DNA from: a virus | Length of the DNA stretch: 61,628 nucleotides | Strand: one strand, 5' to 3' | Virus genome (UHGV): UHGV-1709118 | Part shown: positions 1 to 55,758 of the stretch, one piece after another | Position numbering within the stretch: the stretch's first letter is position 1 | How the letters are laid out: each line of letters begins with the position of its first letter | Position numbers and translations under genes: made by a program | The notes under the pieces: model-generated | The model's input: the letters and a program-made list of their open reading frames with translations, nothing else | What the model was told of the DNA's origin: nothing | Databases searched by the model: none

Positions 1-32
1 ATTACCTCGCGCCCGCTTTCGTTATTGGATAA
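1..32 (+). CDS. 3-prime end of DGR target gene (variable region, partial; gene body upstream of window)
   Basis: 1-15 matches TR 3-prime end attacctcgcgcccg; in the TR-equivalent frame the ORF reads YLAPAFVIG then TAA at 30-32. Confidence 0.55.
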   Translation, partial: YLAPAFVIG

Positions 33-59
33 CTGTAAAGTTACACAGTAAGGTTATAT

Positions 60-87
60 TGGCATTGGCCCTTTTGGGCCAATGCCA
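60..87 (+). promoter_or_regulatory. GC-rich stem-loop just downstream of VR (candidate DGR homing hairpin)
   Basis: perfect inverted repeat tggcattggccc-tttt-gggccaatgcca, 12-bp stem, no U-tract so not a typical terminator. Confidence 0.5.
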
Positions 88-148
88 TAGTATAAAAATG
101 CTTTCACCTTTTCTGGGAAAAATTTTTCTAAAAAAAATTTTTTTTCTT

Positions 149-177
149 TTGACTTTTTAAAAATTTTCTGATATAAT
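149..177 (+). promoter_or_regulatory. sigma70-like promoter upstream of avd-TR-RT operon
   Basis: TTGACT 149-154, 17-bp spacer, extended -10 TGaTATAAT 169-177; RBS aaggagg 197-203 before TTG start at 212. Confidence 0.5.
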
Positions 178-211
178 ATTACTTGTACGTTATTTAAAGG
201 AGGTTTTTAAT

Positions 212-676
212 TTGTCAGTAAGAAAAAAAGATAGGCATCAATCTAAAAATGATTATTTAAATGATGCAAGAAAGTTAGTTCATCAAGTATTGATTTTAGT
301 TCGTCCATATCAAGAATTAGATGATGGTTCTCATATAAAACCAGGCATTCTTGGTAATCCATACTATTATTCAGCCTTTGGCGCAGATATTTTAAAATGT
401 GCTAAAAACGCACATGGATATGCTTTCTCTGCTAGTTTAATCAATCTAAAAAATAAAAAAACTTTAGTTGAAAGAGCGGATTACTTTAATAAATCAATAA
501 GATATTGTGATTCAATTTTAAGGCAATTAGATTTATGTATTTATGAATATGGGTTAAATAATAAAAAGAAAAATAAATCTTTCAAATATGTTGCTAAACT
601 TACTTACAAATTAAAACAAAATCTTCTTGATAGAATAAATAGAGATAATCTAATTTATTCTCAGCGATACAAATAA
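212..676 (+). CDS. DGR accessory protein, Avd-like (accessory variability determinant) candidate
   Basis: 154-aa basic ORF (TTG start with good RBS) located between VR and TR as in avd-TR-RT cassettes; assignment is by position, not sequence identity. Confidence 0.4.
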   Translation: MSVRKKDRHQSKNDYLNDARKLVHQVLILVRPYQELDDGSHIKPGILGNPYYYSAFGADILKCAKNAHGYAFSASLINLKNKKTLVERADYFNKSIRYCDSILRQLDLCIYEYGLNNKKKNKSFKYVAKLTYKLKQNLLDRINRDNLIYSQRYK

Positions 677-699
677 TTTTTTATTCGGTTAAATTCTAA

Positions 700-814
700 A
701 AATATCGCGGGTCTCGCTACTACAACTCGAACAACACGAACAATGTGTGCAATGTCAACTCTGATGGTAATGCGAACAATACCAACTACAACAACAACAA
801 TTACCTCGCGCCCG
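700..814 (+). repeat. DGR template repeat (TR); 5-prime boundary approximate
   Basis: 3-prime end 800-814 identical to window 1-15; adenine-rich with many AAC codons in the VR-equivalent frame and no stop; GC-rich terminal block cctcgcgcccg. Confidence 0.7.
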
Positions 815-1121
815 ATTAGATGAGAACTCTAACTGTCTCTGGTGATGGAGCCGCAGGCGACATCGGCTGAGACGACTAAGTGTTACCCCAGAAAATTATA
901 ACCTATGTTATAACTCATCTATTTTTGGTATTTTCTGGACGCATTGGTTTTAAAACCAAGAAGGAGAGGAAATATTAAATAAAAGACTTAGATTATAATA
1001 GATAGCTTTCATTTAAGGAGAATTTAACCTTTTATCTATACAGATAATTAATTAAGATTGCGGATGTGCGTGTCAGAGCACACAATCTAGCACCGCATGA
1101 TAAAAAAAAGGAGAATTTTTT

Positions 1122-2354
1122 ATAGAAGAAAATCTTTTCCAGCGTTTTTGTAATTTTGACGCTTTTTATGATTCTTCTTATTCTATTTGCCGAAACGTAA
1201 GATGGAAAGATAGTACAGTTAATTTTGAAGAAAATAGATTAAATAACATCTTAACGCTTAAAGAACAATTAGAAAATGACAGTTATGAACAATTAGTTTT
1301 TAACAGTTTTAGTATAATTGAGCGGGGCAAACCTAGAGATATAAGAGCGTGCCATATTTATGACAGATTGGCACAAAATACATTATGTTCGCAAGTTCTT
1401 ATTCCAGAACTAACTCCAAAATTTATTTATGATAATTGTGCTACATTAAAAGGAAAAGGAATTGATTTTGCTTTGCTAGAAGTGCGTAAACATTTACAAG
1501 CAGCGCACAGAACATATGGTTTAGGAAAATCTTTTTATGGTTTAAGAATTGATATTCAAAAATTTTTTGATTCAATAGACCATAATTCTTTAAAGCAAAT
1601 GGCAAAACATTATATTAAAGAAAAACGAGTATTTAAATTAATTGATTATATTATTAATACCTTTTGTTTTTCAGTCACGAAAGATACAGTTCCTATTCCT
1701 GATAAACAATACTATATCATCAAAAAACAAAAATATAAGATAATTTATCCTAAACAATTTTATAAAAATTGTACTTATTATGAATTTAATCATAAAAGTT
1801 TAGGTTTAGGTAGTCAAGCATCTCAATTATTAGCTTTATTGGCATTAAATGGAATTGACCATTATGCAAAAGAGCATTTGCATTTAAAATATTATGGACG
1901 TTATATGGACGATATTTATATTTTGCATAATGACAAAGATTATTTAAAAGAATGTCTTAATAAAATTGAAAATGAATTAAATAAAATACATTTAAAATGT
2001 AACAAAAGAAAAACTAAAATAATTAAAATTAGTCCAATAAAACTAGATAAAAATAATTATCCTCATAAAAGACGTTCAGATAAACATAATCCATTTAAAT
2101 ATTTAAAATGGGATTTTTATTTAACTAATACGAATAAAATTATTCAAACTCCATTTAAAAAGAAAATAAAGCGACAATATAGAAAAATGAGAAAAATGCA
2201 CCAACTTTGGCTACAAGGTAAAATAACTGATATAGAAATTCAAGAATCATATCGAGGTTTTAGAGAACATATAAATAAAGGTACTACTTTTTATATTATA
2301 CAAAATCTTGATAATTATTTCCATTCATTATTTAAAGGAGTTGAAATATTATAA
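1122..2354 (+). CDS. DGR reverse transcriptase
   Basis: ORF track 1368-2354 has YMDD at 1902-1913 and LGSQASQ; open frame continues upstream to stop at 1101-1103 and encodes conserved N-terminal RT region (ERGKPRDIRACHIYDRLAQ); only ATA at 1122 follows RBS aaggaga, no ATG/GTG/TTG before 1368. Confidence 0.85.
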   Translation: MEENLFQRFCNFDAFYDSSYSICRNVRWKDSTVNFEENRLNNILTLKEQLENDSYEQLVFNSFSIIERGKPRDIRACHIYDRLAQNTLCSQVLIPELTPKFIYDNCATLKGKGIDFALLEVRKHLQAAHRTYGLGKSFYGLRIDIQKFFDSIDHNSLKQMAKHYIKEKRVFKLIDYIINTFCFSVTKDTVPIPDKQYYIIKKQKYKIIYPKQFYKNCTYYEFNHKSLGLGSQASQLLALLALNGIDHYAKEHLHLKYYGRYMDDIYILHNDKDYLKECLNKIENELNKIHLKCNKRKTKIIKISPIKLDKNNYPHKRRSDKHNPFKYLKWDFYLTNTNKIIQTPFKKKIKRQYRKMRKMHQLWLQGKITDIEIQESYRGFREHINKGTTFYIIQNLDNYFHSLFKGVEIL

Positions 2355-3013
2355 TGTATTTATTAATCAATAGAGAAAATATAGTAGTCGATATCCTCAC
2401 GGAAATCCGCTACATCAAATTACAATCCAACCCAAGTATTGTCATTGCTTGCTCGGAAGGTGAAGCTACAGGGGTAATAGGCTCAGATTGCAATAGCCAT
2501 TTCATTTTGGCTAATTCAGATATGACAGGTTCTATTGATGCAGTAAGAATTTTATCTTTTGATGGTAATATTCCAGAAGATTATGAACCTAATTTTTATA
2601 AATATGATAATGAAAAAAATGAATTAACATATTACTATTCTTTAGAAGAATACCAAAAAATGAAACAAGAAGAAAATAAAAAAGCTTTCGCTAATTTCCT
2701 TGTTAATCATCCTTTAACTTGGATTGATGGAAAGCAATATGGAGTTACAGAAGAAGACCAGGCAGAAATTAGCCTAAATATGAACCAATATTCTATGGCA
2801 ATTCAAGCTGGAGCCGAGAATCCTAGATTAGAATGGCATGCTCGCCAAGAAGAATGTACATCTTGGACAGTTGAAAATTTGACTGCTTTAACTTTAGCTA
2901 TTTCTGATTTTGTTTATCCTTATTATAGAAAAATGCAACAATATAAAACACAAATTTATACTGCTAAAAATTATAAGGAAATTAAAGCCATAGAATTAAA
3001 ATATGAAAATTAA
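2354..3013 (+). CDS. hypothetical protein, translationally coupled to RT (TAATG overlap)
   Basis: 219-aa ORF; ATG 2354 overlaps RT stop 2352-2354. Confidence 0.5.
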   Translation: MYLLINRENIVVDILTEIRYIKLQSNPSIVIACSEGEATGVIGSDCNSHFILANSDMTGSIDAVRILSFDGNIPEDYEPNFYKYDNEKNELTYYYSLEEYQKMKQEENKKAFANFLVNHPLTWIDGKQYGVTEEDQAEISLNMNQYSMAIQAGAENPRLEWHARQEECTSWTVENLTALTLAISDFVYPYYRKMQQYKTQIYTAKNYKEIKAIELKYEN

Positions 3014-3440
3014 TTCTTTTTTTAAAAATTCTATATTATTTTTGATTGGCGGAAGTATTTACTGGTTAATTGAATTTGTTTACAAAACATATATAAATTC
3101 AGGAAATACTCATTGGTCAATGTTTATCTTAGGCGGTTTATCTTTTTTAATTTTAGGTAGCTTAAATGAAAATATTCCTTGGAATTGGTCTTTATTAGCT
3201 CAAGGATTAATTGGAACCGCAATTATAACAAGTTTAGAATTTTTATTTGGATATATTTTAAACATTCAATTACAACTTAATATTTGGGATTATTCACATT
3301 TACCTTTTAATTATAAAGGACAAATATGTTTATCTTTTAGTTGTCTTTGGTTTATTCTAGGTCTAATAGGAATTATTTTAGATGATTTTCTTAGATGGAA
3401 AATCTTTGATGAAGAAAAACCTTATTATCATATTATATAA
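3003..3440 (+). CDS. small integral membrane protein (about 4 predicted TM helices)
   Basis: 145-aa ORF with four hydrophobic segments; overlaps previous gene by 11 nt. Confidence 0.5.
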   Translation: MKINSFFKNSILFLIGGSIYWLIEFVYKTYINSGNTHWSMFILGGLSFLILGSLNENIPWNWSLLAQGLIGTAIITSLEFLFGYILNIQLQLNIWDYSHLPFNYKGQICLSFSCLWFILGLIGIILDDFLRWKIFDEEKPYYHII

Positions 3441-41485: not shown

Positions 41486-41498
41486 AAAGTAATTATTT

Positions 41499-41527
41499 TT
41501 GACAAAACAGAAAAATAATGTTATAAT
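41499..41527 (+). promoter_or_regulatory. sigma70-like promoter for plus-strand early genes
   Basis: TTGACA 41499-41504, 17-bp spacer, TGtTATAAT. Confidence 0.5.
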
Positions 41528-41575
41528 AATTTTAAAGATTAAAGAAAATAACTTTTTAACAAAGGAGAATTAACA

Positions 41576-41923
41576 ATGACTTATCAGGGTTTTGTCAAAG
41601 AAGATTTTCCGCGAGGAACGCAATTTTACTATGGAATTGATATAGTAGAAATTATTTATAGAAAAACAAAAGATCAAAGAAATAAAGTAATTGACTATTG
41701 GGATTTATCTAAAATTACTTCATTTGAGCCTTTTGCTGTTCATATGCGGCAGGCGGATGATTCAGAATTCCGCAAACCTAATAAATTAATTAATGTAATA
41801 GGAAAACCTTTAATGGTTTTAGTTATTTATCCAGATAATTCTATAAATTATTTTTATCCAGAAGAAATTGAAAGTTCTTCTTTTGAAGAAGAGAATGAGG
41901 AGGATTTTGAAGATTATGAGTAA
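41576..41923 (+). CDS. hypothetical early protein
   Basis: 115-aa ORF with RBS aaggaga. Confidence 0.45.
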   Translation: MTYQGFVKEDFPRGTQFYYGIDIVEIIYRKTKDQRNKVIDYWDLSKITSFEPFAVHMRQADDSEFRKPNKLINVIGKPLMVLVIYPDNSINYFYPEEIESSSFEEENEEDFEDYE

Positions 41924-42467
41924 ACCTATTCCAACTTACCGCAATATTTTTTTAAGTGAAGATATTAAAGCAGAATCAGTTAAAAATATTATTGAGACAA
42001 TTATGAAAATTAATTATGATGATGACTGTAAAGAAGAAGATTATAAAGACTGGAAGAGAGAACCTATTAAACTCTTTATCAACTGTTTTGGCGGTAGTGT
42101 TTATGATGGACTTAGCTTAGTAGATGTTATTAAGCAGAGTAAAACCCCAGTCCATACTATTTCTATTGGTTCTAGTATGAGTATGGGTTTTTGGATTTAT
42201 CTTGCAGGCCATAAGAGATATGTAGGTGAACATTCAACTTTAATGTTCCATGATATTGCTTCGTGGATTTGGGATAAAACTGCGGGTATTAAGCAAGAGT
42301 TAGATGAAACACTAAGATTACAAAAAATTATTTGTAAAGAAATTACTTCTACTTCTGCTATTGAGCAAGAGACATTAGATGATTATATTAATAGAAAAGC
42401 TGAATGGTATATTCATGCAGATAAAGCCATTGAATTAGGCTTGGCTAACGGTTATTATAAAAATTAA
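41916..42467 (+). CDS. ClpP-like serine protease
   Basis: segment TISIGSSMSMGFWIYLAG...HDIASW read as ClpP/S14-like by eye (no HMM run); ATG 41916 overlaps previous stop. Confidence 0.5.
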   Translation: MSKPIPTYRNIFLSEDIKAESVKNIIETIMKINYDDDCKEEDYKDWKREPIKLFINCFGGSVYDGLSLVDVIKQSKTPVHTISIGSSMSMGFWIYLAGHKRYVGEHSTLMFHDIASWIWDKTAGIKQELDETLRLQKIICKEITSTSAIEQETLDDYINRKAEWYIHADKAIELGLANGYYKN

Positions 42468-42480
42468 AGGAGAGAAATAA

Positions 42481-43053
42481 ATGAAAAGAAAGTTTCGACG
42501 ATGCGGCCTCATTGCCGCAAGTATTTTTTGTATTTTGACTATGTGCAGTTTCACTACTGCTGAAAAAGCAGCGCAATTAGATAAGGCGCATAATATCGCA
42601 GAAACCGCACGTTCTATGGGATTGCCGGAAAGCGACCCTATTATAACAAGAGCTAAAGAAATTTGGTGGGAAGTGTATAACACTAAAACTTATTCCGATG
42701 AAGATTTGCGAATTCTTGCTACTGTTATTCATTATGAAGCTGGTAATTGCCCGGATCGCCATCAGCAATTAGTGGCGCAAGTAGTTTTGAATAGAGTTGC
42801 AGATTCCAGATTCCCAAGTACTGTTAAGGCTGTTGTTATGCAGCCTCGGCAATATGCCGCATGGTATGTAACTGCAAGACCGCAAATTTCGCAAAGATGT
42901 TATGATAATGCTAGATTGGCGCTTGAAGGTAGGGTTAATTGCCCCAAAAACGTAATTTATCAAGCACAATTTCGCCAAGGAAAAGGAACTTATGAGGTGA
43001 GCAAAGTTGACACAGGTTGGTGGAAGTCTACCACGTACTTTTGTTATGGATGA
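42481..43053 (+). CDS. cell-wall hydrolase, SleB/Hydrolase_2 family, with N-terminal signal/anchor
   Basis: IHYEAGNCP...QVVLNRV...QYAAW...GWWKS motifs typical of SleB-like hydrolases; hydrophobic N-terminus. Confidence 0.65.
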   Translation: MKRKFRRCGLIAASIFCILTMCSFTTAEKAAQLDKAHNIAETARSMGLPESDPIITRAKEIWWEVYNTKTYSDEDLRILATVIHYEAGNCPDRHQQLVAQVVLNRVADSRFPSTVKAVVMQPRQYAAWYVTARPQISQRCYDNARLALEGRVNCPKNVIYQAQFRQGKGTYEVSKVDTGWWKSTTYFCYG

Positions 43054-43288
43054 AACAAAGAAAGCTAGTCAATTACATTTATTAATGACTTGGAATACTA
43101 TGAAGCTGTATTGTGGTGGAAAAATTAAAAGTTTTAAAGAATGGGAAGAAATTGTTAAGGAAAATAGTGCTAAAATAAGTATGCAATATGATAGAAATAT
43201 TCAGCAAGAAAAATTAAGATTGATTAATGAAAGAATTAAGAAACACAATAAATCTATTTATGATTCTAAGGGAAGATTATTAATATGA
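43046..43288 (+). CDS. hypothetical protein
   Basis: ORF track 43007-43288; start moved to first ATG after upstream stop. Confidence 0.35.
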   Translation: MDETKKASQLHLLMTWNTMKLYCGGKIKSFKEWEEIVKENSAKISMQYDRNIQQEKLRLINERIKKHNKSIYDSKGRLLI

Positions 43289-43659
43289 CGATTAATGATA
43301 TACTAAATTTTGCAAATAAATATAATTTGTCTGATGAAGCTAGAGATGAATTAATTACTATGTTTATCTTAAATGATAAAACTAAATTTAATACCACTCC
43401 TTATAATCCTAAATTAGGGCCAAGTGATAGTATTCTGCAAGAAAGTTTGATTTTATCATCGCAAGGAAAAGTATCTTCGGCACCTAAAAAGGTTGTAGTA
43501 TCTTCGCATAAATATAGTAATAACGATAGATTGGCAGGAATTCTTTGCTTGAAGGATAGAAATATTATTGATGAAAAAATTGATTTAATGAGAAAAGGTT
43601 ATTATAGTAATAAAACAAAAAGTAAAACAGGATTAACACCTGTTGTATGGAGGGATTAA
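43285..43659 (+). CDS. hypothetical protein
   Basis: 124-aa ORF. Confidence 0.4.
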   Translation: MTINDILNFANKYNLSDEARDELITMFILNDKTKFNTTPYNPKLGPSDSILQESLILSSQGKVSSAPKKVVVSSHKYSNNDRLAGILCLKDRNIIDEKIDLMRKGYYSNKTKSKTGLTPVVWRD

Positions 43660-43661
43660 AA

Positions 43662-44360
43662 ATGGTAATATGTGGTTTTCCAGGAATAGGAAAAACTTTT
43701 ACAGTTCAAAATTGGATTTATTCAAATATAAAAATTTATGATTCAGATAGTTCAAATTTTTCATGGATTGATAAAAATGACCACTCCAAAGGTCGCAGCC
43801 CAGATTTTCCCGCAAACTATATCGAGTATATTAAATCAATAGATAATGAAAATAGTGTTGTTTTAACAAGTTCGCATAAAGAAGTGCGGGATGCCCTTAA
43901 AGCCGCAGGAATTGACTACTATGTTGTGTACCCCAATTTGGAAAGTTTTGGCAAAGATTTTTATTTAGATAGAATCCGCAGGAGGGAAAACGGCATTAAT
44001 TCTGATTCTTTTGTTTCTTTGATTGCGGAAAATTGTGAAGATTGGATTAGAGATATTGAAGAAACAACAAATAAAGAAAATATTATTGCTATTAATAAAA
44101 ATGCAAAATTAGAGGAAGTTATTTTAAATATTGTTCAGAAAGGAAAAGATATTTTTGTAGTTGAAACTATTTTATATGATGGTAATAATATTTTAGAAAT
44201 AGAAAAATTTTTAGGAAAAAATTACACGATTGCAATAGAAAAAAGGCCCAATGGATATTGTCATATTTATCCTGGAGACATTCGTTTTAAAGTAAATGAT
44301 TGTTTTTGCAAAAGAGACAATGTAATTTGGATAGAAAAGGGAAGTTTTGATGAGGGATAA
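43662..44360 (+). CDS. P-loop NTPase / nucleotide kinase-like protein
   Basis: Walker A GFPGIGKT at N-terminus; ATG 43662 preceded by ggaggg. Confidence 0.5.
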   Translation: MVICGFPGIGKTFTVQNWIYSNIKIYDSDSSNFSWIDKNDHSKGRSPDFPANYIEYIKSIDNENSVVLTSSHKEVRDALKAAGIDYYVVYPNLESFGKDFYLDRIRRRENGINSDSFVSLIAENCEDWIRDIEETTNKENIIAINKNAKLEEVILNIVQKGKDIFVVETILYDGNNILEIEKFLGKNYTIAIEKRPNGYCHIYPGDIRFKVNDCFCKRDNVIWIEKGSFDEG

Positions 44361-44694
44361 CAAATATTTTAAAAATCTTAAAGAAATTCCTTTTCCCTAT
44401 GCGGAAAAAACTTATGCGAAATTAGACCAAAGAGATTGTTTTAATTTGGATACTTCTTTATTTGCTTGGCTTTATGAGCACTTACAGGCTTATTATGATG
44501 AGGCTAGTGTTAGTATTGATTTAATGGAATATAAATATAACATTAATGGAGAAGAACTGAATGAAAAAGAATGTATCTTTAGAATGATTGAAGATTGTAA
44601 AATTATTCTTGACACTTCTGAATATGAAAATTTTGCTGAAAGAAATGATTTATTTGATGTTTTGAAGGAATGTATTTGGAGTTTATGGTATTGA
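44347..44694 (+). CDS. hypothetical protein
   Basis: 115-aa ORF. Confidence 0.4.
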   Translation: MMRDNKYFKNLKEIPFPYAEKTYAKLDQRDCFNLDTSLFAWLYEHLQAYYDEASVSIDLMEYKYNINGEELNEKECIFRMIEDCKIILDTSEYENFAERNDLFDVLKECIWSLWY

Positions 44695-45077
44695 TTTTAA
44701 ATTTCTGCGAAATTTAAAATCAGAAGGAGAGAAAATATTTTAGAAATTCGTTTTTTGAATTTAAAATTGATTTGTATCCTTTTTCAAATTTAAAAATAGT
44801 TTAGAGAGGGAAATGTCCAGGCCAAATGGTTTTTAATAACAAATATAATTTTTTTCCCGAAAACTACCCCGGAGTACGCCAAACCATTAAACTATCTTTC
44901 ATTGGTAAATATCCATTGACCCCACAAAGGCCCCATCAAACAGTATCTTCTGTAAACAACCATTCATTAATCAAAAGAGAAATGATCTTGTCAATAGGCA
45001 AATTAAACAAAATTATTCTTCAGCAAAACGCATAAAGAAGAACTCTTAATTTCTTTTTCTTTTGTTCAATGTGTCAA

Positions 45078-45106
45078 TAGACAAAAGGCTATCTCGATGG
45101 TATAAT
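45078..45106 (+). promoter_or_regulatory. early promoter
   Basis: TAGACA, 17-bp spacer, TGgTATAAT, then conserved leader acagaaattaagg. Confidence 0.45.
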
Positions 45107-45140
45107 AAATACAGAAATTAAGGAAAGGGGTCAATGACCT

Positions 45141-45488
45141 ATGAAAAAGTTCTTCTCTATCATCGCTATTCTAGCAATCACTATCTCTGCTCTCACTACT
45201 TCTGCTTGCGCTCTTAGCACTCCTGCTGAAAATGCCAGATACTGTGCAACAAACAGCATCCACTATGGTATGAATACTGTTCGTCTGGTTCGCGCTACTG
45301 TTACTGCAACTCATGATGATGGATGTGTGACATTGAAAGACATGCGTGATGGCAACCTGTACGCCATTGATGATGATGGCCTTGTGAAAGGTGAGGACGT
45401 TCTCATTGCCATTGACGACAATGCTACACCAGGTTTTGTCTATGATGACATGATTCTTGGCTTCTGGAATGGTTCTGCTCTTAAATGA
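45141..45488 (+). CDS. secreted/lipoprotein-like small protein
   Basis: signal-peptide-like N-terminus MKKFFSIIAILAITISALTTSACA; GC-rich. Confidence 0.5.
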   Translation: MKKFFSIIAILAITISALTTSACALSTPAENARYCATNSIHYGMNTVRLVRATVTATHDDGCVTLKDMRDGNLYAIDDDGLVKGEDVLIAIDDNATPGFVYDDMILGFWNGSALK

Positions 45489-45496
45489 GCAGAACC
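45471..45496 (+). terminator. rho-independent terminator
   Basis: ggttctgctc-ttaaat-gagcagaacc then T-run; stop codon in loop. Confidence 0.55.
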
Positions 45497-45538
45497 ATTT
45501 TTCTTTTTTATTTTATAAATAAATAAATGAAAAAGGTA

Positions 45539-45567
45539 TTGACATTCTGGTTAAGATATGGTATACT
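45539..45567 (+). promoter_or_regulatory. early promoter
   Basis: TTGACA 45539-45544, 17-bp spacer, TGgTATACT. Confidence 0.55.
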
Positions 45568-45594
45568 ATAGATAGTAAAAGGAGGAAAGATCAA

Positions 45595-45798
45595 ATGAAA
45601 AAGACTTTTGAGTTCTATGCTTGCTCACCTGTTAAGACATGGCGAAACAACTACCAGGGAGAAAGTTGGCAGTGGGCTAAAGTTCAATGGTTTCGCTTTC
45701 CTTCTGGTTTGCGCAAGTGCTTAGTCTTTCCTGATGGTCAGGCAATCAAGATTGAACTTTGTAAGGTTAAAAATAAAAGAGAGGTTGGAGAAGTATGA
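45595..45798 (+). CDS. hypothetical early protein
   Basis: 67-aa ORF with RBS aaaggagg. Confidence 0.45.
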   Translation: MKKTFEFYACSPVKTWRNNYQGESWQWAKVQWFRFPSGLRKCLVFPDGQAIKIELCKVKNKREVGEV

Positions 45799-46010
45799 AG
45801 AAATACTGGATAGACAATGAATGTATGATAGATTTTATTGAAATGTATTGTGAGGGTAAAAGCTTTCTATGGAGATGCTTCTTTGGTTGGAGAAAGACTT
45901 CTTTCAAACCTAATGGAGACTTGCACTGGAGAGCTTACATTATACCAAAGAGAATATATCAGAAAGCATTAGTCTTGGCTAAGAAGTATGATGAGTATGA
46001 AGTAGTATGA
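45795..46010 (+). CDS. hypothetical early protein
   Basis: 71-aa ORF overlapping previous stop. Confidence 0.45.
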   Translation: MKKYWIDNECMIDFIEMYCEGKSFLWRCFFGWRKTSFKPNGDLHWRAYIIPKRIYQKALVLAKKYDEYEVV

Positions 46011-46252
46011 TGGGAGAAGAGGTAAGCTTAGCTTATCTCTTTTCTTTTGTTTAATATACTTGTTATAAACGAATGTCTTCGTTTTACAAGGCAACTTTCC
46101 GAATCAGTATACCACAAAGTCTGCTCAAAATCAATAGTCAAAATAGCTAAATTTAGAGAGAGAATTGGGATCCCGAATTGTGCAGTATACCTATTGACCT
46201 ATTGCGGCAAGTATGCTATTATATAATTACAAAAGGGAAGGAGATAAAACAA

Positions 46253-46438
46253 ATGAAGAACATCAAGAAGATCATTGGTGTTAAGATGGACAAAGCTAAC
46301 AAGGCGATCCTTGACAAGTGGAAGGAATGAATCAAAGAAGAGGGCCGCGACAAAGAAAGCAAGAATAACTTCGCTAACTACTACGCTAACTCTTATGAAG
46401 AGTATCAGCAGATTTGGGAAGTGGTTGAATGTTTGTAA
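46253..46438 (+). CDS. small ORF interrupted by a single in-frame TGA (46328-46330); possible readthrough or two short ORFs
   Basis: promoter and RBS upstream; 25 codons, TGA, then 36 further sense codons in frame. Confidence 0.25.
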
Positions 46439-46507
46439 AAAAAAGTCTTGACAAGAAGCTCAGTCTGTGGTATTATATAATCAAGATAAAGAAAGGGGAA
46501 ACAAAAG

Positions 46508-46840
46508 ATGACTAACAAGGAATTATTCGACAGTCGGTACACCGCAACCTACTATGAAAGCGCTTATGTGCTTCACAATGGAGACTTGACTCTCTACTAT
46601 CCCAACTGCGGTTATGACCCTGAGAAAATCATGGTCTGGAAGATCACTGCTGAGGACTACCGCTTTTATGGCAAAGGCGCTCTGAAAGAACTGCTGGAAG
46701 TTCTTTACAAGGAAGCTGCTCCTGAGCTGGTGGCTCTGGTTGATAGTAAACTCCGGTTGGCAACCGATGATGAGGAATGTGCTACGCTTGTTAAACACAA
46801 GTATCCCAACGACAAACAGCACTACATTGATATGTGGTAA
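46508..46840 (+). CDS. hypothetical early protein
   Basis: 110-aa ORF after promoter TTGACA-17-TGgTATTAT. Confidence 0.5.
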   Translation: MTNKELFDSRYTATYYESAYVLHNGDLTLYYPNCGYDPEKIMVWKITAEDYRFYGKGALKELLEVLYKEAAPELVALVDSKLRLATDDEECATLVKHKYPNDKQHYIDMW

Positions 46841-46861
46841 AAAGTAAAGGAGCTGATTAGA

Positions 46862-47083
46862 ATGATAACAATCCTTCACAAAGCAGGTATTGCTTTCAGG
46901 GGAGAATATCTCCGGGAAGCTTGCAGGAAGAACTACGATTGGCTTACTTTAATGTATGCCGTTGAAGATTATAACCGCGCTGTGAAGCGTTACTACAAGT
47001 ATGTTTCTCGCCACCACGCAGTTATCCTTAACAAATATCCTTCTGGCGATGTTATCGCTCTTGAAGAAGGGGTAATTCTATAA
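46862..47083 (+). CDS. hypothetical early protein
   Basis: 73-aa ORF followed by terminator 47084-47104. Confidence 0.45.
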   Translation: MITILHKAGIAFRGEYLREACRKNYDWLTLMYAVEDYNRAVKRYYKYVSRHHAVILNKYPSGDVIALEEGVIL

Positions 47084-47199
47084 GGGCCGCAAGGCCCTTT
47101 TTCTTTTTGTTATATGCTTATATGGTGAAACTTCTAGGCTTCTAGCAGTAAAAAAAAAAAAAAATAAATAAATAAAAATTTTTTTTGTTCAATTTACCT

Positions 47200-47228
47200 A
47201 TTGACAGCAAAGCAAAAGTATGGTATAA
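47200..47228 (+). promoter_or_regulatory. early promoter followed directly by GC-rich hairpin (no ORF)
   Basis: TTGACA 47200-47205, 17-bp spacer, TGgTATAAT 47220-47228; hairpin 47238-47272. Confidence 0.5.
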
Positions 47229-47462
47229 TAATTGCGGCGGCGCGCACACGACCATGGCCTCCCAGTGTGCGCCGAAATTCTGTCAATACGCAAATTGCAC
47301 AAAAATTTAGAGGAAAGTTTGGTGATTTTGCCCAGAAGTATTCATCCCGAAATGGTGTTTGTTTATAAAAAGTATAGCGGCAAAATATCATCAAAATTGA
47401 TTATTGAATTTCTTAAAAATTTTTGTTATAATAATTACAGAAAACAAAAGGAGGTCAAAAGT

Positions 47463-47624
47463 ATGACTGAATACCGTGACTGGTTGGTAGTTTTCCCCAA
47501 TGGTGGACAGATACACTTTGATAACAAGGGTATCGCAATGCGGAACGCGACTCGCAAGAAAGGCTCTGTTTATGAGTGTCATCTGGAAGAGAATGGGAAT
47601 GAAACTCTCATTCATATCTTTTGA
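47463..47624 (+). CDS. hypothetical small protein
   Basis: 53-aa ORF from ATG 47463 with RBS aaggagg; track ORF 47232-47624 N-terminal extension spans promoter/hairpin and is rejected. Confidence 0.4.
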   Translation: MTEYRDWLVVFPNGGQIHFDNKGIAMRNATRKKGSVYECHLEENGNETLIHIF

Positions 47625-47639
47625 TAGGAGGTATTATGT

Positions 47640-47819
47640 ATGAAGCAAACTTATTCTATCTATCATGCTGGCGATGAAGAAATTATCGGGCCTTTTGATT
47701 CCTTTTCATTGGCAGAGGATTTCTTTCATAGGTTAGCTCAGTATGCTACTACAATGTATTACTTGGTAGATGATTCTACTGGTGAAATTCTTCTTGATAT
47801 TGAAGAAATTAAGGCTTGA
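47640..47819 (+). CDS. hypothetical small protein (59 aa, not in ORF track)
   Basis: ATG 47640 preceded by ataggagg; open to TGA 47817-47819. Confidence 0.35.
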   Translation: MKQTYSIYHAGDEEIIGPFDSFSLAEDFFHRLAQYATTMYYLVDDSTGEILLDIEEIKA

Positions 47820-47877
47820 CATTTGGGCCTTACCGTGGTATAATTACCATAGAAACAAAGGAAAGAGGTTGATACTT

Positions 47878-48333
47878 ATGACTGACAAGATGTTGGCTTT
47901 TGATATGGACGGCACTATTGCTGACCTGTATGGAGTTAATGGTTGGCTGTCTAAACTGCGGAAGGAAGATGCAAGCCCTTACCTGGAAGCTAAACCCATG
48001 TGGGATGTGGATAAGCTCAACGAGCTTATCAATAAACTAAAGCAGGCTGGTTGGGAGATTGCAATCATCACTTGGCTTTCTAAAGAAAGCAGTCCTGAGT
48101 ATGCAAAGGCTGTGCGAGAAGCTAAAAAGGCTTGGCTCTTGAAATGGGGTTTCCCCTATGATCATTTTCATGGTCTAAAGTATGGAGCTACTAAAGCGAA
48201 TGCTGTTCGTAGAAAAGCATCTAAGGCAATTCTTATTGATGATAATAAGAAGGTTCGTGATAGTTGGCATTTGGGAGAAACTGTCAATCCTGAAACTTGT
48301 GACATCATTGATTTTTTGGCTTCCCTGCTTTAA
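47878..48333 (+). CDS. HAD-superfamily phosphatase, 5-prime(3-prime)-deoxyribonucleotidase-like
   Basis: N-terminal FDMDGTIADL motif (DxDGT); start at ATG 47878 after promoter and RBS. Confidence 0.55.
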   Translation: MTDKMLAFDMDGTIADLYGVNGWLSKLRKEDASPYLEAKPMWDVDKLNELINKLKQAGWEIAIITWLSKESSPEYAKAVREAKKAWLLKWGFPYDHFHGLKYGATKANAVRRKASKAILIDDNKKVRDSWHLGETVNPETCDIIDFLASLL

Positions 48334-48353
48334 GCAGGGAGTCAAAAAAGTTC

Positions 48354-48382
48354 TTGACAAATGAGAAAAAATCTGGTATAAT
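48354..48382 (+). promoter_or_regulatory. early promoter
   Basis: TTGACA 48354-48359, 17-bp spacer, TGgTATAAT; leader acagaaattaagaaagaggt. Confidence 0.55.
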
Positions 48383-48415
48383 GAGTACAGAAATTAAGAA
48401 AGAGGTAGATGCAAC

Positions 48416-49123
48416 ATGAGCATTGATAGGCGCAGACATTATGTTCTGCTTCTGGACACTGAGACAGCAAACACCATCACTGACCAAAAAGGCCGATTAG
48501 ACATGACCTCAGTTCTTGTCTATGATTGCGGGTGGTGTGTTATGGACACAAGAGGAAATATCTACAAGGAACAATCCTTTGTTAATCGAGATATTTTCTT
48601 TGATGAAAGTGAGCTTATGAAATCCGCCTACTATGCGGAAAAGATTCCCCAGTATCTGGAAGATATTCGACAGGGTATCCGGCAAGTAGCTAACACTTAC
48701 CAGATTCGACAGGCTATGCTTGCAGACATGGCAGAATATGGTATTACAGAGGTAGTTGCCCACAATGCAAGATTCGACCTGAACGCATTGAATTTACTTC
48801 AACGCTGGACTACCAAAAGTAAATATCGCTATTGGTTCCCCTATGGTACCGATATTTGGGATACTCTCAAAATGGCAAGAGACGTTATTCTAAAGATGCC
48901 TACCTATAAAAGGTTCTGTGAACAACACGGTTTCTTAACCAAAACTGGTAAACTCTCAGCGACAGCAGAAAATTTGTATAGATTCATCTCCAAAGACCCT
49001 ACTTTTCAGGAAGAACATAAAGGTCTTGACGATGTGCGAATTGAGCGAGAGATTATGGTCTACTGCTATCGGCAAAAGAAGAAAATGCGGAAAAAACTTT
49101 TTGAAAATCAAAAAACCGCTTGA
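48416..49123 (+). CDS. DnaQ-like 3-prime-5-prime exonuclease (DEDDh)
   Basis: Exo motifs LLLDTETAN, VAHNARFDL, EHKGLDDV. Confidence 0.6.
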   Translation: MSIDRRRHYVLLLDTETANTITDQKGRLDMTSVLVYDCGWCVMDTRGNIYKEQSFVNRDIFFDESELMKSAYYAEKIPQYLEDIRQGIRQVANTYQIRQAMLADMAEYGITEVVAHNARFDLNALNLLQRWTTKSKYRYWFPYGTDIWDTLKMARDVILKMPTYKRFCEQHGFLTKTGKLSATAENLYRFISKDPTFQEEHKGLDDVRIEREIMVYCYRQKKKMRKKLFENQKTA

Positions 49124-49232
49124 CAAAACAAAAGGAAAATGATATAATATAAGAGAAGTGAGGGAGATAAAACCCTCCCCACTTCCTTAACAATTAGGGT
49201 AGCGACCTACCGCACAGAAAGGAATTGATATT

Positions 49233-49589
49233 ATGACTAACGAGAAGAAGATTACTAACAAGGGCGCCCTTCAGTATGTTCTGGACAACTGCGAGATTCC
49301 TGCCGACGTTCGTGCCAAGATTGAGATTCTGCTCCATCAGCAGGAGAACAAGAGCCGCGGTAGTGGTAAGCCTACTGCAACTCAGACTGAGAACGCACGT
49401 CTGATTGAGGTGATTGCCGACACTCTGCCCAAGGGCGAAGCTTTCACCATCTCCGACATTACCAAGACCATTCCTGAGCTGAACGGCTTTACCCCTCAGA
49501 AGGTTGGCCCCATGCTCAAGAAGCTGGTTGAAACTGGTCGAGCCACCCGTGACACCAACAAGGGCAAGGCATACTACACTATGGTGTAA
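49233..49589 (+). CDS. hypothetical protein, paralog of 55318-55734 (possible winged-helix)
   Basis: shared motifs with 55318 ORF (QTEN...LI...KTIPEL...TPQ...PM.K.LV..G.A..DT.KG.A); about 50 percent GC. Confidence 0.5.
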   Translation: MTNEKKITNKGALQYVLDNCEIPADVRAKIEILLHQQENKSRGSGKPTATQTENARLIEVIADTLPKGEAFTISDITKTIPELNGFTPQKVGPMLKKLVETGRATRDTNKGKAYYTMV

Positions 49590-49648
49590 TAATTAAATAA
49601 AGAGGGGCATTAAGCCCCTCTTTATTTTCTCAAAAAGGATGGTGTTTA

Positions 49649-50011
49649 ATGATAGATGAGACTAGGGTTAAACATCTTCAAAAGGTGTTAGACCTTGATA
49701 GAGAACAAGCTTTAGCAGTTATTGCCGATGATGAAGCAATAGATAAAGGTGCAGATCTTTTCCCACTTACTGATGAACAAAAGAAAGTAGAAAAGAAAAT
49801 GCGGTTATCCGGCAAAGAGAAAGGCAAGTATACTATGAATGCTCCCCGACAGCGCAAGGTTGACAATGACAAACATCGCTTGATTGAGATTATTGCGGAA
49901 TCTCTTGAACAACTTGAAATTGAAACTACCATCAATAACCCAGAACGAGAAATTGAGATAGTTTTTAATGAAAGACGTTTCAAAATTACATTAAGCGCTC
50001 CTAGAAAATAA
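49649..50011 (+). CDS. hypothetical protein, paralog of 55759-56148
   Basis: shared DKG...LT-EQ-KV-KK ... LI ... NPER-I ... F ... TL motifs. Confidence 0.5.
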   Translation: MIDETRVKHLQKVLDLDREQALAVIADDEAIDKGADLFPLTDEQKKVEKKMRLSGKEKGKYTMNAPRQRKVDNDKHRLIEIIAESLEQLEIETTINNPEREIEIVFNERRFKITLSAPRK

Positions 50012-50263
50012 TAATAAAACCGGCTTATTTTTTATAGGCCGGTTTTCTTTTTTGCCCAATACTTTTTAATGGCAAATGTTTGACGGCCCGCGCATGGTCA
50101 AGCGCTGCCGCATTTCAATTATACCAGGTAATCCGACTTTTGTCAATGGGCAAACCGCACAATTATTTGACTTTTTGTTTTCCCAAAATTGGTGATTCTG
50201 CCTATTGATTTTTTTATTAAAATTTTATATAATATAATTGTTCCAAGGGAAAGGAGAAACAAA

Positions 50264-50458
50264 ATGAAGATTAATTATAAATCTTTCAGCGTGGAAGTTT
50301 TTGGTGAAAATATTTGGGGCCAAACCTATCTGAACAGAGTAGGCTTTGATTCTGAGGAAGAAGCCGATAAGTTCATTGAATCTCTGGAAAAGGAAGAAGG
50401 AATTTATTCGGCAATTAAAATTGTAAATACAAGTTACAATTTCAGAAAAAACCCTTGA
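50264..50458 (+). CDS. hypothetical small protein
   Basis: ATG 50264 with RBS aaaggaga. Confidence 0.4.
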   Translation: MKINYKSFSVEVFGENIWGQTYLNRVGFDSEEEADKFIESLEKEEGIYSAIKIVNTSYNFRKNP

Positions 50459-50515
50459 CAAACAAACCAAGACGTGTTATAATAAACACAGAAATTAAGA
50501 AAGAGGTTGATAATT

Positions 50516-50737
50516 ATGAAAGCAAGCACTAACACAAAAATCAATATCGACATCACCGGCATCTGCATGTGGTTCCTCTCTTCCCTCTTCATTTGGCTGG
50601 GCTGGAAAGTTCTGGTGGCTCACTTCGGCTTGCCTTACTTTACCTATCTGGAAATCTTCGCCATGCGTATGGGGCTGGATGGTCTTGCAAGCATCTTCCG
50701 CAAGAAAAAAGAAGTGGAAGGCGAAAATAAGGCTTGA
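50516..50737 (+). CDS. small membrane protein
   Basis: 73-aa ORF with hydrophobic core; promoter TTGACA 50455-50460. Confidence 0.45.
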   Translation: MKASTNTKINIDITGICMWFLSSLFIWLGWKVLVAHFGLPYFTYLEIFAMRMGLDGLASIFRKKKEVEGENKA

Positions 50738-50762
50738 CAAACGTCAAGCCGAATGGTATAAT
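50734..50762 (+). promoter_or_regulatory. early promoter with palindromic -35 region
   Basis: TTGACA 50734-50739 inside palindrome ggcttgac-aaac-gtcaagcc (50731-50750); TGgTATAAT 50754-50762. Confidence 0.5.
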
Positions 50763-50786
50763 AATAACAGAAAGAGGTTGATGTAA

Positions 50787-50930
50787 ATGATTTCTACTAT
50801 TGCTCTGGCTTCCCTGGCTGCTATTATGATGGTGAAGGTGTTCGTTGCGGTTGAGCGTGAGGATTACCGCAAAATGTTCGCTAGCGGATTTGAGTTCGCT
50901 CTTCTGCTTCTGACTTTGGCTAATATTTAA
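50787..50930 (+). CDS. small hydrophobic peptide (47 aa, not in ORF track)
   Basis: ATG 50787 after agaggttgatg; open to TAA 50928-50930. Confidence 0.3.
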   Translation: MISTIALASLAAIMMVKVFVAVEREDYRKMFASGFEFALLLLTLANI

Positions 50931-50943
50931 GGAGGTAAATATA

Positions 50944-51192
50944 ATGAGAATTTATTCTATTAAACATCTGTTCGACAAAGAAGTTGCTGGTTTTTATCGA
51001 GAAATGAAAGAAAGCGTTGAAACAAAAGAAGAAGTAGAAAATGCCGTTTATCTGGTAATGGGTATGCAGGTTATGGCAAGTATTATCGCCGAAGGAAGTG
51101 ATGAAGAGGTTCTTGCCATTGAACATGAAACTTGGGATTATTGGATTCCAAAGTTTAAGAAACTTCTGGAAAATCTTCCTGAAAAGACTTGA
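50944..51192 (+). CDS. hypothetical early protein
   Basis: 82-aa ORF with RBS aaggaggt. Confidence 0.45.
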   Translation: MRIYSIKHLFDKEVAGFYREMKESVETKEEVENAVYLVMGMQVMASIIAEGSDEEVLAIEHETWDYWIPKFKKLLENLPEKT

Positions 51193-51217
51193 CATACGTC
51201 AAGTTCTATGATATAAT
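51189..51217 (+). promoter_or_regulatory. early promoter with palindromic -35 region
   Basis: TTGACA 51189-51194 inside palindrome acttgac-atac-gtcaagt (51187-51204); TGaTATAAT. Confidence 0.5.
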
Positions 51218-51248
51218 AAAGCCATAATAAAGAAAGGAAGTCGATATC

Positions 51249-51446
51249 ATGACTAAAGAAGAACTTTTAAACACTTTGCAGGAGGTCGGCTATGAATGGA
51301 GCAGAACGCTCAATGAGCACAAGTATGACTACTCGGATTTCGAGTGGAAGATGCTCGGCTGGGTAGCTGGTGAATTGATTGACCATTTCGATCAGGCAAT
51401 TGATTCAATTCGTGATGAACTTCAGGAGGAGGAAGAAGAAGAATGA
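51249..51446 (+). CDS. hypothetical acidic small protein
   Basis: 65-aa ORF. Confidence 0.45.
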   Translation: MTKEELLNTLQEVGYEWSRTLNEHKYDYSDFEWKMLGWVAGELIDHFDQAIDSIRDELQEEEEEE

Positions 51447-51691
51447 GAATGACAGAAAGAATCGAGAGATTTTTCAATCTTGATGAAGAGGAGAAGGAAA
51501 TTCTCAAAAAGGCTAGTTATATTCTCTGCGACATGGCAGAAAATGTTGATGGTTTAGGAAAAATTTCCTTAACTTATGAGAATTTTACTGAACCATTCGC
51601 AAAAACTCGGAGTTATGATGAAGGGAATCTTTATGATTTCTCATACCTATTAGCTGTTCTTTCTAAGGCAGAAACAATTGAAATTGAATAA
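51443..51691 (+). CDS. hypothetical early protein
   Basis: 82-aa ORF overlapping previous stop; terminator 51695-51719 follows. Confidence 0.45.
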   Translation: MRMTERIERFFNLDEEEKEILKKASYILCDMAENVDGLGKISLTYENFTEPFAKTRSYDEGNLYDFSYLLAVLSKAETIEIE

Positions 51692-51776
51692 AAATAAGGG
51701 CCTTTGGCCCTTATTTTTTACTTGACAGATTTTTCTTTCTATGTTATAATAACAATAGAAAAGGAGATGAAGCAAA

Positions 51777-51980
51777 ATGACAGATTTTGCAAGAACTGAA
51801 ATTCTTCTTAAAGCTTTACAGGAAGCAGGAAGATACATGCGGAAATATTTACCCGCAGAAATGCCATTAGGCGAAGATGCTGATATTACAAGATACTGTT
51901 TAATAAATGGTAATCAAGACCCGGAAGGCTCTAAGTTTGTAGAATACTTCATTCTTAAAGCATTTGATAATTATAAGTAA
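51777..51980 (+). CDS. hypothetical early protein
   Basis: 67-aa ORF after promoter TTGACA 51722-51727 and RBS aaggaga. Confidence 0.45.
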   Translation: MTDFARTEILLKALQEAGRYMRKYLPAEMPLGEDADITRYCLINGNQDPEGSKFVEYFILKAFDNYK

Positions 51981-52226
51981 GGGCTAAAAGCCCTTACTTT
52001 TTTATTTCTATATTTATTATAAACAAAAGTCAAGTGATAGTAAAGTTTGGCGGCGCGTTGATGGCTGACATGCGCCGCAATTTAATTATACCTCAAGCCA
52101 CGCCTTTTGTCAAGAGCAAAAGTGCATAAAAACAAGGCAGACAAAAATCCCGAATTTGTGCATTTCGCCAATAGACAAATAAGACCTGCCGTGTTATACT
52201 ATAATCACAGTAAGGGAGGAGATAAC

Positions 52227-52871
52227 ATGACAGAGATGGAACAGACTGTTCTTCAGTGGCTTGAAGATTTGGCGATTGACCCTTCAATGACCGATTGGGA
52301 CATTCAGAACCGGATGAAAGAGATTAAGCTTGGAAGCGAAGCTGCTATGGATTGCGGTTCTAGCAAGATTTGTCTCATCCCTCACAACGCCAACTTTGTT
52401 ATTAAGTGGACGTATAGCGACCCTGACGAGCTTACCAATGATGAAGCTCTGAAAGAGGTTGACATGTATAACAAAGCTGTCGAAGCAGGTTTAGGCATGT
52501 TCTTCCCCAAGACCGAGCTTTTCTGCACAATGAACGGAATCAATTTCATCAAGCAGGAGAAGATTGATTTTGCGGTTTGTGGCTGTTCCTATCAGACCTT
52601 TAAGCGGTATAAAACCAAGACCAAAACCGCAAGTGACCAGAAAGCGCAACTCATGAACAAGTGCTTCAAGAAAGCGGCTCCTAATGGGCGCTATGCAAGA
52701 AACTTAGACCCTCTTTGGGCTAAGATGGCTCTTGTTATCTATGGCAAAAGACTTTGCAAAACTCTTTGCGAGTTTGTCATTGAGAACAGAATCAATGACC
52801 TGCACGAATCCAACATTGGTTACAAAAATGACCGCCCAATCATCTTAGATTTTAGCGGTTTTGATAGATAA
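52227..52871 (+). CDS. hypothetical protein
   Basis: start at ATG 52227 after RBS aagggaggag; track ORF 52107 start lies in promoter/hairpin region. Confidence 0.45.
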   Translation: MTEMEQTVLQWLEDLAIDPSMTDWDIQNRMKEIKLGSEAAMDCGSSKICLIPHNANFVIKWTYSDPDELTNDEALKEVDMYNKAVEAGLGMFFPKTELFCTMNGINFIKQEKIDFAVCGCSYQTFKRYKTKTKTASDQKAQLMNKCFKKAAPNGRYARNLDPLWAKMALVIYGKRLCKTLCEFVIENRINDLHESNIGYKNDRPIILDFSGFDR

Positions 52872-52876
52872 AAGGC

Positions 52877-52905
52877 TTGACAAAGACCGGACTGTATGGT
52901 ATAAT
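52877..52905 (+). promoter_or_regulatory. early promoter
   Basis: TTGACA 52877-52882, 17-bp spacer, TGgTATAAT. Confidence 0.55.
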
Positions 52906-52937
52906 ACAGGTACAATAAAAGAAAGGAAGTAAAAAAC

Positions 52938-53946: not shown

Positions 53947-53990
53947 GTAAAAGCATGATATAATAACAATAGAAAACAGGAAAGGAATTG

Positions 53991-55734: not shown

Positions 55735-55758
55735 GGCCCTCTTCCCTAGAAGGGAGGT

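Follow-up and report, generated by a model that had tools for sequence, protein, structure and literature searches.

Introduction

No natural protein diversifiers are more powerful than diversity-generating retroelements (DGRs), which abound in gut phages, and to our knowledge it is largely unknown how their mutagenic reverse transcriptase (RT) is held at a level that is both safe and effective. Here, we analysed the DGR at the start of the UHGV virus genome UHGV-1709118 (61,628 nucleotides of one strand, 5' to 3'; the whole of this stretch is called the window), in which the RT reading frame has no canonical start codon before its conserved N-terminal region. Our comparison with related phage sequences suggests that this RT probably initiates at an AUA codon at 1122 under the control of a Shine-Dalgarno sequence (SD), and that it is deliberately poorly translated.

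Both non-canonical initiation and hairpin control of polymerase genes have precedents. The E. coli genes infC and pcnB start with AUU, and hairpins that hold the SD or start of a polymerase gene control its translation in the replicase operator of MS2/Qbeta, where coat protein is the ligand, and in the autogenous operator of T4 gp43. In Staphylococcus aureus, ribosome profiling mapped AUA starts in infC, ccpN and citZ and an AUU start in cvfC1, all with extended SDs and with approximately 10-30% of the output of an AUG reporter; the AUA start of ccpN is conserved in Bacillus subtilis (PMC13009471). In Listeria, ATG to ATA or ATT variants of rsbW showed reduced translation in the order ATG > ATA > ATT, all of them still being translated, and fewer than 0.4% of the core genes have ATA, ATC, ATT or CTG starts (bioRxiv 10.1101/2025.08.26.672274). 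The native RT gene of the Bordetella DGR (brt) has no clear ribosome-binding site (RBS), and addition of a consensus RBS increased retrohoming in E. coli 100-fold (PMC12875486). The prototype DGR is thus a precedent for weak RT translation. In Bordetella phage BPP-1, the stem-loop at the 3' end of the spacer that binds the RT protein bRT (Sp96-140) lies at approximately -50 to -5 of brt (bioRxiv 10.1101/2023.10.23.563531).

The locus studied here shares with the BPP-1 DGR the order of variable repeat (VR, in mtd in BPP-1), open reading frame (ORF) at the avd position, template repeat (TR), structured spacer and RT, as well as an RT homologous to bRT, adenine-specific VR changes and weak RT translation signals at the 3' end of a structured spacer. 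It differs in having a strong extended SD with a non-AUG start, whereas brt has an ATG and no SD; in a spacer of ~307 nt instead of 140; in a conserved hairpin that takes in the 3' end of the SD, the start codon and RT codons; in an avd-position protein without detectable sequence similarity to Avd; and in its host, judged from the metagenome-assembled genomes of its relatives to be a Bacillota gut bacterium. As in the Bacillota genes with AUA or AUU starts, the codon stands at an SD-set spacing behind an extended SD, is conserved among orthologues and would be expected to give ~10-30% of the output of AUG. Unlike them, the gene is a phage retroelement polymerase known from its sequence, a start-sequestering hairpin is added, and the codon is not fixed in the RT family, in which ATG, GTG, TTG, ATT and ATA alternate between lineages. 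Listeria rsbW offers a second parallel, a natural ATG to ATA change that lowers but does not abolish translation of a Bacillota gene and is tolerated or selected; those mutations are recent and within one species, whereas here ATA has persisted through strain divergence under purifying selection. The polymerase operators of MS2/Qbeta and T4 gp43 likewise have a hairpin holding the SD or start at a polymerase gene and serve as a model for autoregulation, although protein binding is hypothetical here and the hairpin belongs to the same DGR RNA that carries the template. Our best reading is that a DGR RT here makes use of an arrangement known from Bacillota, in which an extended SD precedes a non-canonical start. 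A full-text literature search found no description of recurrent non-canonical starts in the DGR RT family combined with a covarying start-sequestering hairpin.

The RT frame and its proposed AUA start

The features at the beginning of the RT gene are as follows.

1122..2354, + strand: coding sequence of the DGR RT, assigned by homology; 410 codons plus stop, with YMDD and the LGxxxSQ motif
1122..1124, + strand: ATA, proposed RT start codon, 7 nt 3' of the SD and equivalent to ATG/GTG/TTG/ATT in relatives
1108..1114, + strand: SD, AAGGAGA, with the preceding A's AAAGGAG (an extended SD); kept in all related lineages
1368..1370, + strand: TTG, first canonical in-frame start and the choice of the gene caller (328 aa, 1368..2354); without SD, an implausible start

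The RT frame is closed upstream by TGA TAA at 1098-1103 (the in-frame TAA is at 1101-1103), reads AAA AAA GGA GAA TTT TTT ATA GAA GAA AAT from 1104, and remains open for 416 codons to the TAA at 2352-2354. When the frame was re-read, the initial annotation proved correct in reporting no in-frame ATG, GTG or TTG before the TTG at 1368 and an AAGGAGA at 1108-1114 followed by an in-frame ATA at 1122, and the N-terminal RT peptide that it quoted matched the translation. The gap between SD and ATA is 7 nt (1115-1121), not the 8 nt given there, and two features were absent from it: an ATG at 1097-1099, shifted by +1 from the RT frame, and a run of eight A's (A8) between this ATG and the SD. AAGGAGA is enriched in the window (25 observed versus 11.4 ± 3.5 expected), and AAGGAG(G) stands 6-10 nt 5' of the start in nearly all of its long ORFs, among which only RT has a non-canonical codon linked to the SD. 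Like established genes with non-canonical starts, RT has a near-cognate codon at SD-defined spacing, no canonical alternative before the conserved protein, and persistence of this codon in orthologues under purifying selection.

In the mechanism that we propose, the extended SD (AAAGGAGA, ending at 1114) would recruit ribosomes, and fMet-tRNA would initiate at the near-cognate AUA 7 nt downstream. RT synthesis would be throttled because AUA is a poor start. Initiation would be reduced still more by a hairpin in which the SD, the spacer and the start region pair with RT codons ~4-6. The A run, of seven or eight residues (A7/A8), and ATG 1097 would then be 5' leader sequence that does not enter the RT protein, placed where the structured spacer RNA of the DGR has its 3' end. 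The initial annotation had offered initiation at ATA with low RT levels as one of two possibilities. As to the codon this is favoured, being conserved, placed by the SD and matched by Bacillota precedent; that AUA is the codon in use, that a low RT level is the outcome and that this low level is a selected trait is what we infer. N-terminal peptides that would distinguish the starts are (M)EENLFQR and MIKKGEFFIEENLFQR.

The protein itself bears on where translation begins. It holds YMDD and LGSQASQ (the DGR-type [LIV]GxxxSQ motif) and matches Pfam RVT_1 (E 5.9e-15) and Bordetella bRT (PDB 8ub7; E 3.8e-13), the alignment with bRT running from bRT residue 8, opposite the fifth residue from ATA. 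Conservation across lineages is strong over residues 1-82, which include many invariant positions and align with bRT residues 8 to ~84. In Bordetella, the N-terminal extension of bRT contacts Avd (bioRxiv 10.1101/2023.10.23.563531). An RT truncated to 328 aa and starting at TTG 1368 would use the first canonical in-frame start and is the database gene model; however, this TTG has no SD upstream, its use would remove the ~82 conserved residues that align with the N-terminal region of bRT, and codons 1-82 contain only one change, a synonymous one, over three pairwise strain comparisons. Nor do homologous RTs, bRT included, begin near residue 83, as had been suggested as a possible refutation. 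We regard the truncated form as extremely unlikely.

Conservation of ATA and start codons in related lineages

ATA was found in six DNA sequences from different samples (the window, L001, L026, L127, L118 and L119), which represent four distinct strains. L001 is 98.3% and L026 96-98% identical to the window, while L118 and L119, from two separate sequencing runs (ERR1136622 and ERR1137710), are 100% identical to it over 5.35 kb, A8 and ATA included. In the 90%-identity protein cluster, each of the four listed 418-aa alleles has Ile at the ATA position and none has Met. A sequencing or assembly error at base 1124 or in the A8 run is thus refuted at the level of assemblies, given ATA in six sequences from four strains and the reproduction of A8 and ATA in two runs, and the chance of such an error is practically nil. 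An ATG at 1122-1124 in relatives, named earlier as a sign of error, did not appear: close relatives carry ATA, repeatedly and in independent assemblies. When the ATA lineage was aligned with L069, ATA GAA GAA AAT CTT stood opposite ATG GAA AAT TTA, and descent of the window's ATA from ATG is plausible.

We then compared the codon 4-8 nt after the conserved SD in ~17 lineages with RT identities of 57-66%. It is ATG in five (L059, the L064 group, L060, L061 and L069), GTG in one (L071), TTG in seven (the C, D and E groups, L058/L124, L121, L123 and L125) and ATT or ATA in four (ATA in the window lineage, ATT in L004, ATT ATA in L120 and ATT ATT in L122). L004, L120 and L122 are separated from each other by 0.9-1.65 synonymous substitutions per synonymous site (dS), with a ratio of nonsynonymous to synonymous rates (dN/dS) of 0.07-0.10; the RTs within lineage B (L004-L006) are identical, so dN/dS was computed with L120 and L122 added. 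As an internal control, the avd-position ORF has ATG in 13 of 17 representative lineages, compared with 4 of the same 17 for RT. The window lineage, like lineages C and D, also begins the avd-position ORF with a weak start, TTG. Gene calls of 387 aa were rejected as a proxy for non-canonical starts, as the DNA showed many with TTG starts that the caller had ignored.

Many relatives are recoded from TAG to Gln (L002, L007, L019, L020, L061, L071 and L122), and the in-frame TAGs of their RTs mostly align with Gln in the window. Several lineages have one to three TAGs right after the RT start (TTG AGT TAG TAG TAG; GTG TAG), for example at L007:2986-2994; these TAGs sit in the loop of the initiation hairpin described below, and RT translation there would depend on a suppressor tRNA. 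An alternative genetic code was considered for the window and rejected: standard-code ORFs cover 98%, TAG read-through adds little, and TAG is the stop codon of only 1 of its 41 long ORFs, in line with the standard code. A tRNA scan of the window found no suppressor tRNA. A megablast search of window 1-3000 against INPHARED phages returned no match.

Activity of the DGR

The two repeats of the element are located as follows.

1..15, + strand: 3' end of VR, GC-rich and resembling the initiation-of-mutagenic-homing (IMH) site; identical to TR 800-814
709..814, + strand: TR, 106 nt with 37 adenines, from TR/VR alignments in L001 and L118

A second possibility raised in the initial annotation was that a change of ATG to ATA marks a decaying retroelement. 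In three ATA strains, the ratio of nonsynonymous to synonymous difference (pN/pS) of RT was 0.03-0.15; these strains have diverged by a pS of ~0.06, and no stop or indel has entered 410 codons. The mismatches between TR and VR are concentrated at TR adenines: 20 in L001 with one non-A mismatch inside the repeat, 19 in L026 with no others in the core, and 18 with no others in the core in L118, which is 100% identical to the window. The TR of L026 has diverged, and its VR follows its own TR. Over 106 nt, 20 sites separate the VR of L118 (A8) from that of L001 (A7), and 19 of those sites are TR adenines; the flank has 11 differences in 300. L006 also has the adenine-only pattern. Contigs break exactly at the 3' end of VR where this was checked (window, L119 and L127), which suggests that assemblers break at VR and fits either VR heterogeneity within samples or collapse of the TR/VR repeat. 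Among the many independent contigs of this phage family that begin ~1.1 kb 5' of RT are the window, L004, L005, L014, L018, L045, L049, L058, L064, L076, L119 and L127.

From these sequences, the window RT appears to be the intact gene of an active DGR rather than of a decaying one. A recent inactivation of RT by ATG to ATA would agree with the alignment of ATA to the ATG of L069, by which this transition probably occurred, and with the poor quality of ATA as a start. It does not agree with the low pN/pS and the absence of stops and indels among three to four ATA strains, with TR and VR that agree at non-A sites (without exception in L026 and L118, and at all but one site in L001) while VRs differ between strains, with the retention of SD, spacing and spacer structure, or with the persistence of an independent ATT/ATA clade at a dS of ~1 and a dN/dS of ~0.07-0.10. 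Purifying selection on RT and adenine-specific diversification of VR, including in the contig identical to the window, thus speak against the decay proposed earlier, and a pseudogene is very unlikely.

The upstream ATG and the A7/A8 run

Three features toward the 3' end of the spacer are as follows.

1097..1099, + strand: upstream ATG, in the +1 frame relative to RT, opening an 18-codon ORF to the TAA at 1151-1153; judged not to be the RT start
1102..1109, + strand: A8 homopolymer in the 5' leader; A8 in the window, L118 and L119, A7 in L001, L026 and L127
1060..1097, + strand: stem UGCGG 1060-1064/CCGCA 1093-1097, closing a stem-loop just 5' of UGAUAA

With A7, ATG 1097 is in the RT frame, which gives the 418-aa model of the gene caller, and with A8, as in the window, it is out of frame. 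A7 is apparently the ancestral state, since the more distant L026 has it. ATG 1097 could therefore be the true start, as in the A7 strains (418 aa, MIKKGEFFIEENLF...), and the A8 of the window a +1 frameshift that leaves the phage RT-null or forms part of a slipped-strand ON/OFF phase switch. The in-frame ATG in L001, L026 and L127 and the ancestral look of A7 favour this start, and the polymorphism of run length among near-identical RT alleles is what a contingency tract would show. As in contingency loci, a poly-A of 7 or 8 lies between ATG and ORF and varies in length among close, near-identical strains; unlike in them, the ATG has no SD and lies in a conserved stem, and the tract, best read as leader, is not inside a region translated from a functional start.

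Several lines of evidence weigh against initiation at ATG 1097. It has no SD, although AAGGAG(G) precedes almost all genes of this phage by 6-10 nt. Its A forms the last, closing base pair of the 1060-1097 stem, which is 100% paired in 17 lineages with both-side changes at three of the five pairs, whereas slid controls are 6-61% paired. Lineage E, L058 and L124 have ACG at this position, and the ATG is out of frame in lineage B, L120, L122, F, L059 and L069; the RTs of all of these are intact. The conserved YGAUAAGGAG motif occurs in varied frames relative to RT, with other frames in lineage B, L120, L122, F and L059, and reads TGA TAA in the RT frame in L004, L120, L122, L059 and the L064 group. 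The poly-A run is limited to lineage A, the other lineages having AUGAUAAGGAG. Among the listed members of the lineage-A cluster, the 418-aa call occurs on 18 contigs and the 371- or 328-aa calls on 29, the A-run lengths of the latter being taken from the length of the gene call; identical RT alleles (P0126, P0127 and P0130) occur in all three forms. About one-third in frame is the expectation for an unconstrained leader homopolymer, and the observed 18 versus 29 is close to that. The out-of-frame state is thus found on ~62% of contigs, with RT ORFs intact and under purifying selection, and in the A8 contig identical to the window VR has diversified at adenines and is not the same as in the A7 strains.

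ATG 1097 is probably not the RT start, because it has no SD, its A lies in a covarying stem and other lineages have ACG or other frames at this position; the frameshift or phase-switch alternative is unlikely. The same stem-loop is a candidate counterpart of the RT-binding stem-loop in the Bordetella spacer. Initiation in the ATG frame could also reach the RT frame by transcriptional slippage or by +1/-2 ribosomal frameshifting on A8, which lies between ATG and the RT frame, and homopolymer slippage is a known recoding route. This would, however, require initiation at an SD-less ATG embedded in a stem and a +1 or -2 shift instead of the usual -1 on A_AAA_AAA; A7 relatives would go out of frame, the other lineages have no A run, and the SD-ATA arrangement makes it unnecessary. 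We consider recoding highly unlikely.

A conserved hairpin over the initiation region

The initiation region of RT can fold as follows.

1110..1140, + strand: predicted initiation-region hairpin; GGAGAA 1110-1115 pairs with UUUUCC 1135-1140 and UUUUU 1117-1121 with GAAAA 1128-1132, with AUA in the loop

Single-sequence folds were made for 12 lineages, and in every one RT codons ~5-8 pair with the last G of GGAG, with the spacer and with the start codon, wholly or in part. The helix spans 6-12 bp, and its 3' arm ends at the C of a conserved TTC. The start codon itself takes part, as ATG opposite CAT in L060 and as ATT opposite AAT in L004 and L122, and the arms of the distal helix change in a compensatory manner between lineages (GAGAGUGUUAUU/AAUAAUACUUUC; GAGAGAAGUU/AACUUCUUUC; GAAAGAUGA/UCAUCUUUC; GAAACUUA/UAAGUUUC). 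To score covariation, 15 lineages (11 in an earlier version) were aligned with the SD and the TTC codon as the only anchors and with their loops trimmed. Eight base pairs were 96.7% paired, versus 27-57% in slid controls, and 23 cells had changes on both sides, with a covariation score of 0.504 versus at most 0.156. RNAalifold recovered the same helix from a plain MAFFT alignment of 20 lineages that included the window. An outer stem between RCURCA and coding UGUAGU, seen in single-sequence folds, was rejected: the same 3' arm covaries with an upstream UGYRG, and the window lacks the coding-side complement.

Several points weigh against initiation at AUA 1122 under a start-sequestering hairpin. 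The case for AUA is made by sequence comparison, and AUA ranks among the weakest start codons. The 418-aa ATG model may hold for the A7 strains, in which the ATG is in frame, and the window would then be frameshifted. The lineages of the census are phylogenetically related and their counts are not independent, which makes the contrast between avd and RT no more than indicative. The hairpin of the window is weak (-6.1 kcal/mol; z -0.88, not significant alone) and shifted in register relative to its relatives, and the evidence for DGR activity in the A8 background in particular is indirect, coming from one VR, that of L118, and from assembly breaks at VR. Weighed together with the evidence above, SD-directed initiation at AUA 1122 with deliberately poor translation remains the probable reading.

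A more speculative extension is motivated by the binding of bRT to Sp96-140 of BPP-1 just 5' of brt. The hairpin and the upstream stem might form the 3' 'RT-grapple' of the spacer RNA, equivalent to Sp96-140, so that RT-Avd, on binding its own template RNA, would shut its own RBS in an autogenous feedback acting in cis, with weak starts (AUA/AUU/UUG) holding RT near one per DGR RNA and the two or three TAGs right after the start, in the hairpin loop of recoded relatives, acting as a second gate, dependent on a suppressor tRNA. We put this forward tentatively, as an idea with the greater chance of being wrong.

The recurrence of weak or non-canonical starts in RT and not in avd, always after a strong SD and inside a covarying hairpin where the template-carrying spacer RNA ends, means that this phage family points to translation initiation as a main control point of the mutagenic RT. 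Standard gene callers shorten these RTs (models of 328, 371 and 387 aa) or extend them from a spurious ATG (418 aa), so that surveys of DGRs would wrongly count such elements as broken. Variants of the start codon and of the hairpin could offer engineers a natural tuning dial, as the 100-fold gain from an added RBS in Bordetella suggests.

Organization of the DGR and other features of the window

The remaining parts of the element are as follows.

149..177, + strand: promoter-like site of the sigma-70/SigA type (TTGACT-17 nt-TATAAT, extended by TG); matches at 11 of 12 positions, with no better site in 1-2500
212..676, + strand: 154-aa ORF at the Avd position, TTG start, SD AAAGGAGG; position conserved in 17 lineages with 44-52% identity
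815..1121, + strand: TR-RT spacer of ~307 nt, conserved, structured and non-coding, in the position of the Bordetella phage spacer (Sp)

The element has the hallmarks of a DGR, namely RT clade motifs with bRT homology, the adenine pattern between TR and VR, and a VR at the C-terminus of the target. The window begins inside VR, the stop codon of the target gene being at 30-32, and holds no second VR elsewhere. In L001, the target is an ORF of at least 594 aa that ends in ...YRYLAPAFVIG with VR at its C-terminus, and the corresponding gene of L118 carries a Big_3 domain. A hairpin follows the target gene at window 62-86 (GGCATTGGCCC-TTTT-GGGCCAATGCC), and the same hairpin in L001 (1944-1968) has an identical stem and a 4-nt loop of AAAA instead of TTTT. 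The site at 149-177 is probably, from its match to the consensus, the promoter of an avd-TR-spacer-RT transcript. An Avd-type accessory protein is a small basic helical bundle encoded between VR and TR. The protein in this position matched no Pfam, NCBIfam or PDB sequence, profile search included; a single-sequence model was all-helical with five helices at low confidence (mean pLDDT 46), and the protein is Lys/Arg-rich by inspection.

The spacer, aligned across 17 lineages, has a fold z-score of -2.68, and its block CUUUC-AUUU-AAGGAG (1003-1021) does not vary among the 17. Three copies of AAGGAGA are present in the stretch made up of the spacer and the initiation region (961-967, 1015-1021 and 1108-1114), and the middle one lies in the invariant block with no start codon after it. 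Two SD-like and two anti-SD-like (CUUUC) elements might form alternative pairings, a possible switch. An Rfam scan of 1-2500 at E values up to 1 gave no family other than a chance match to Xist.

On the 3' side of RT, a DUF4376-like protein (2354-3013), with an ATG that shares bases with the stop codon of RT, is followed by a small membrane protein (3003-3440; Pfam PF06541 in its database record), and this synteny is kept in all relatives inspected. Farther along, window 41490-58616 contains at least seven near-consensus promoters (TTGACA-17 nt-TATAAT) with a conserved leader (ACAGAAATTAAGGAAAGAGGT) behind them, in what resembles a repeated cassette of early-gene promoter and leader. Three tandem 42-nt repeats (AAGCACCTCTCCATTTTAGAATATTTTAAGAGATTTTATTAT) lie at 61163-61288, two of them identical and the third 69% identical.

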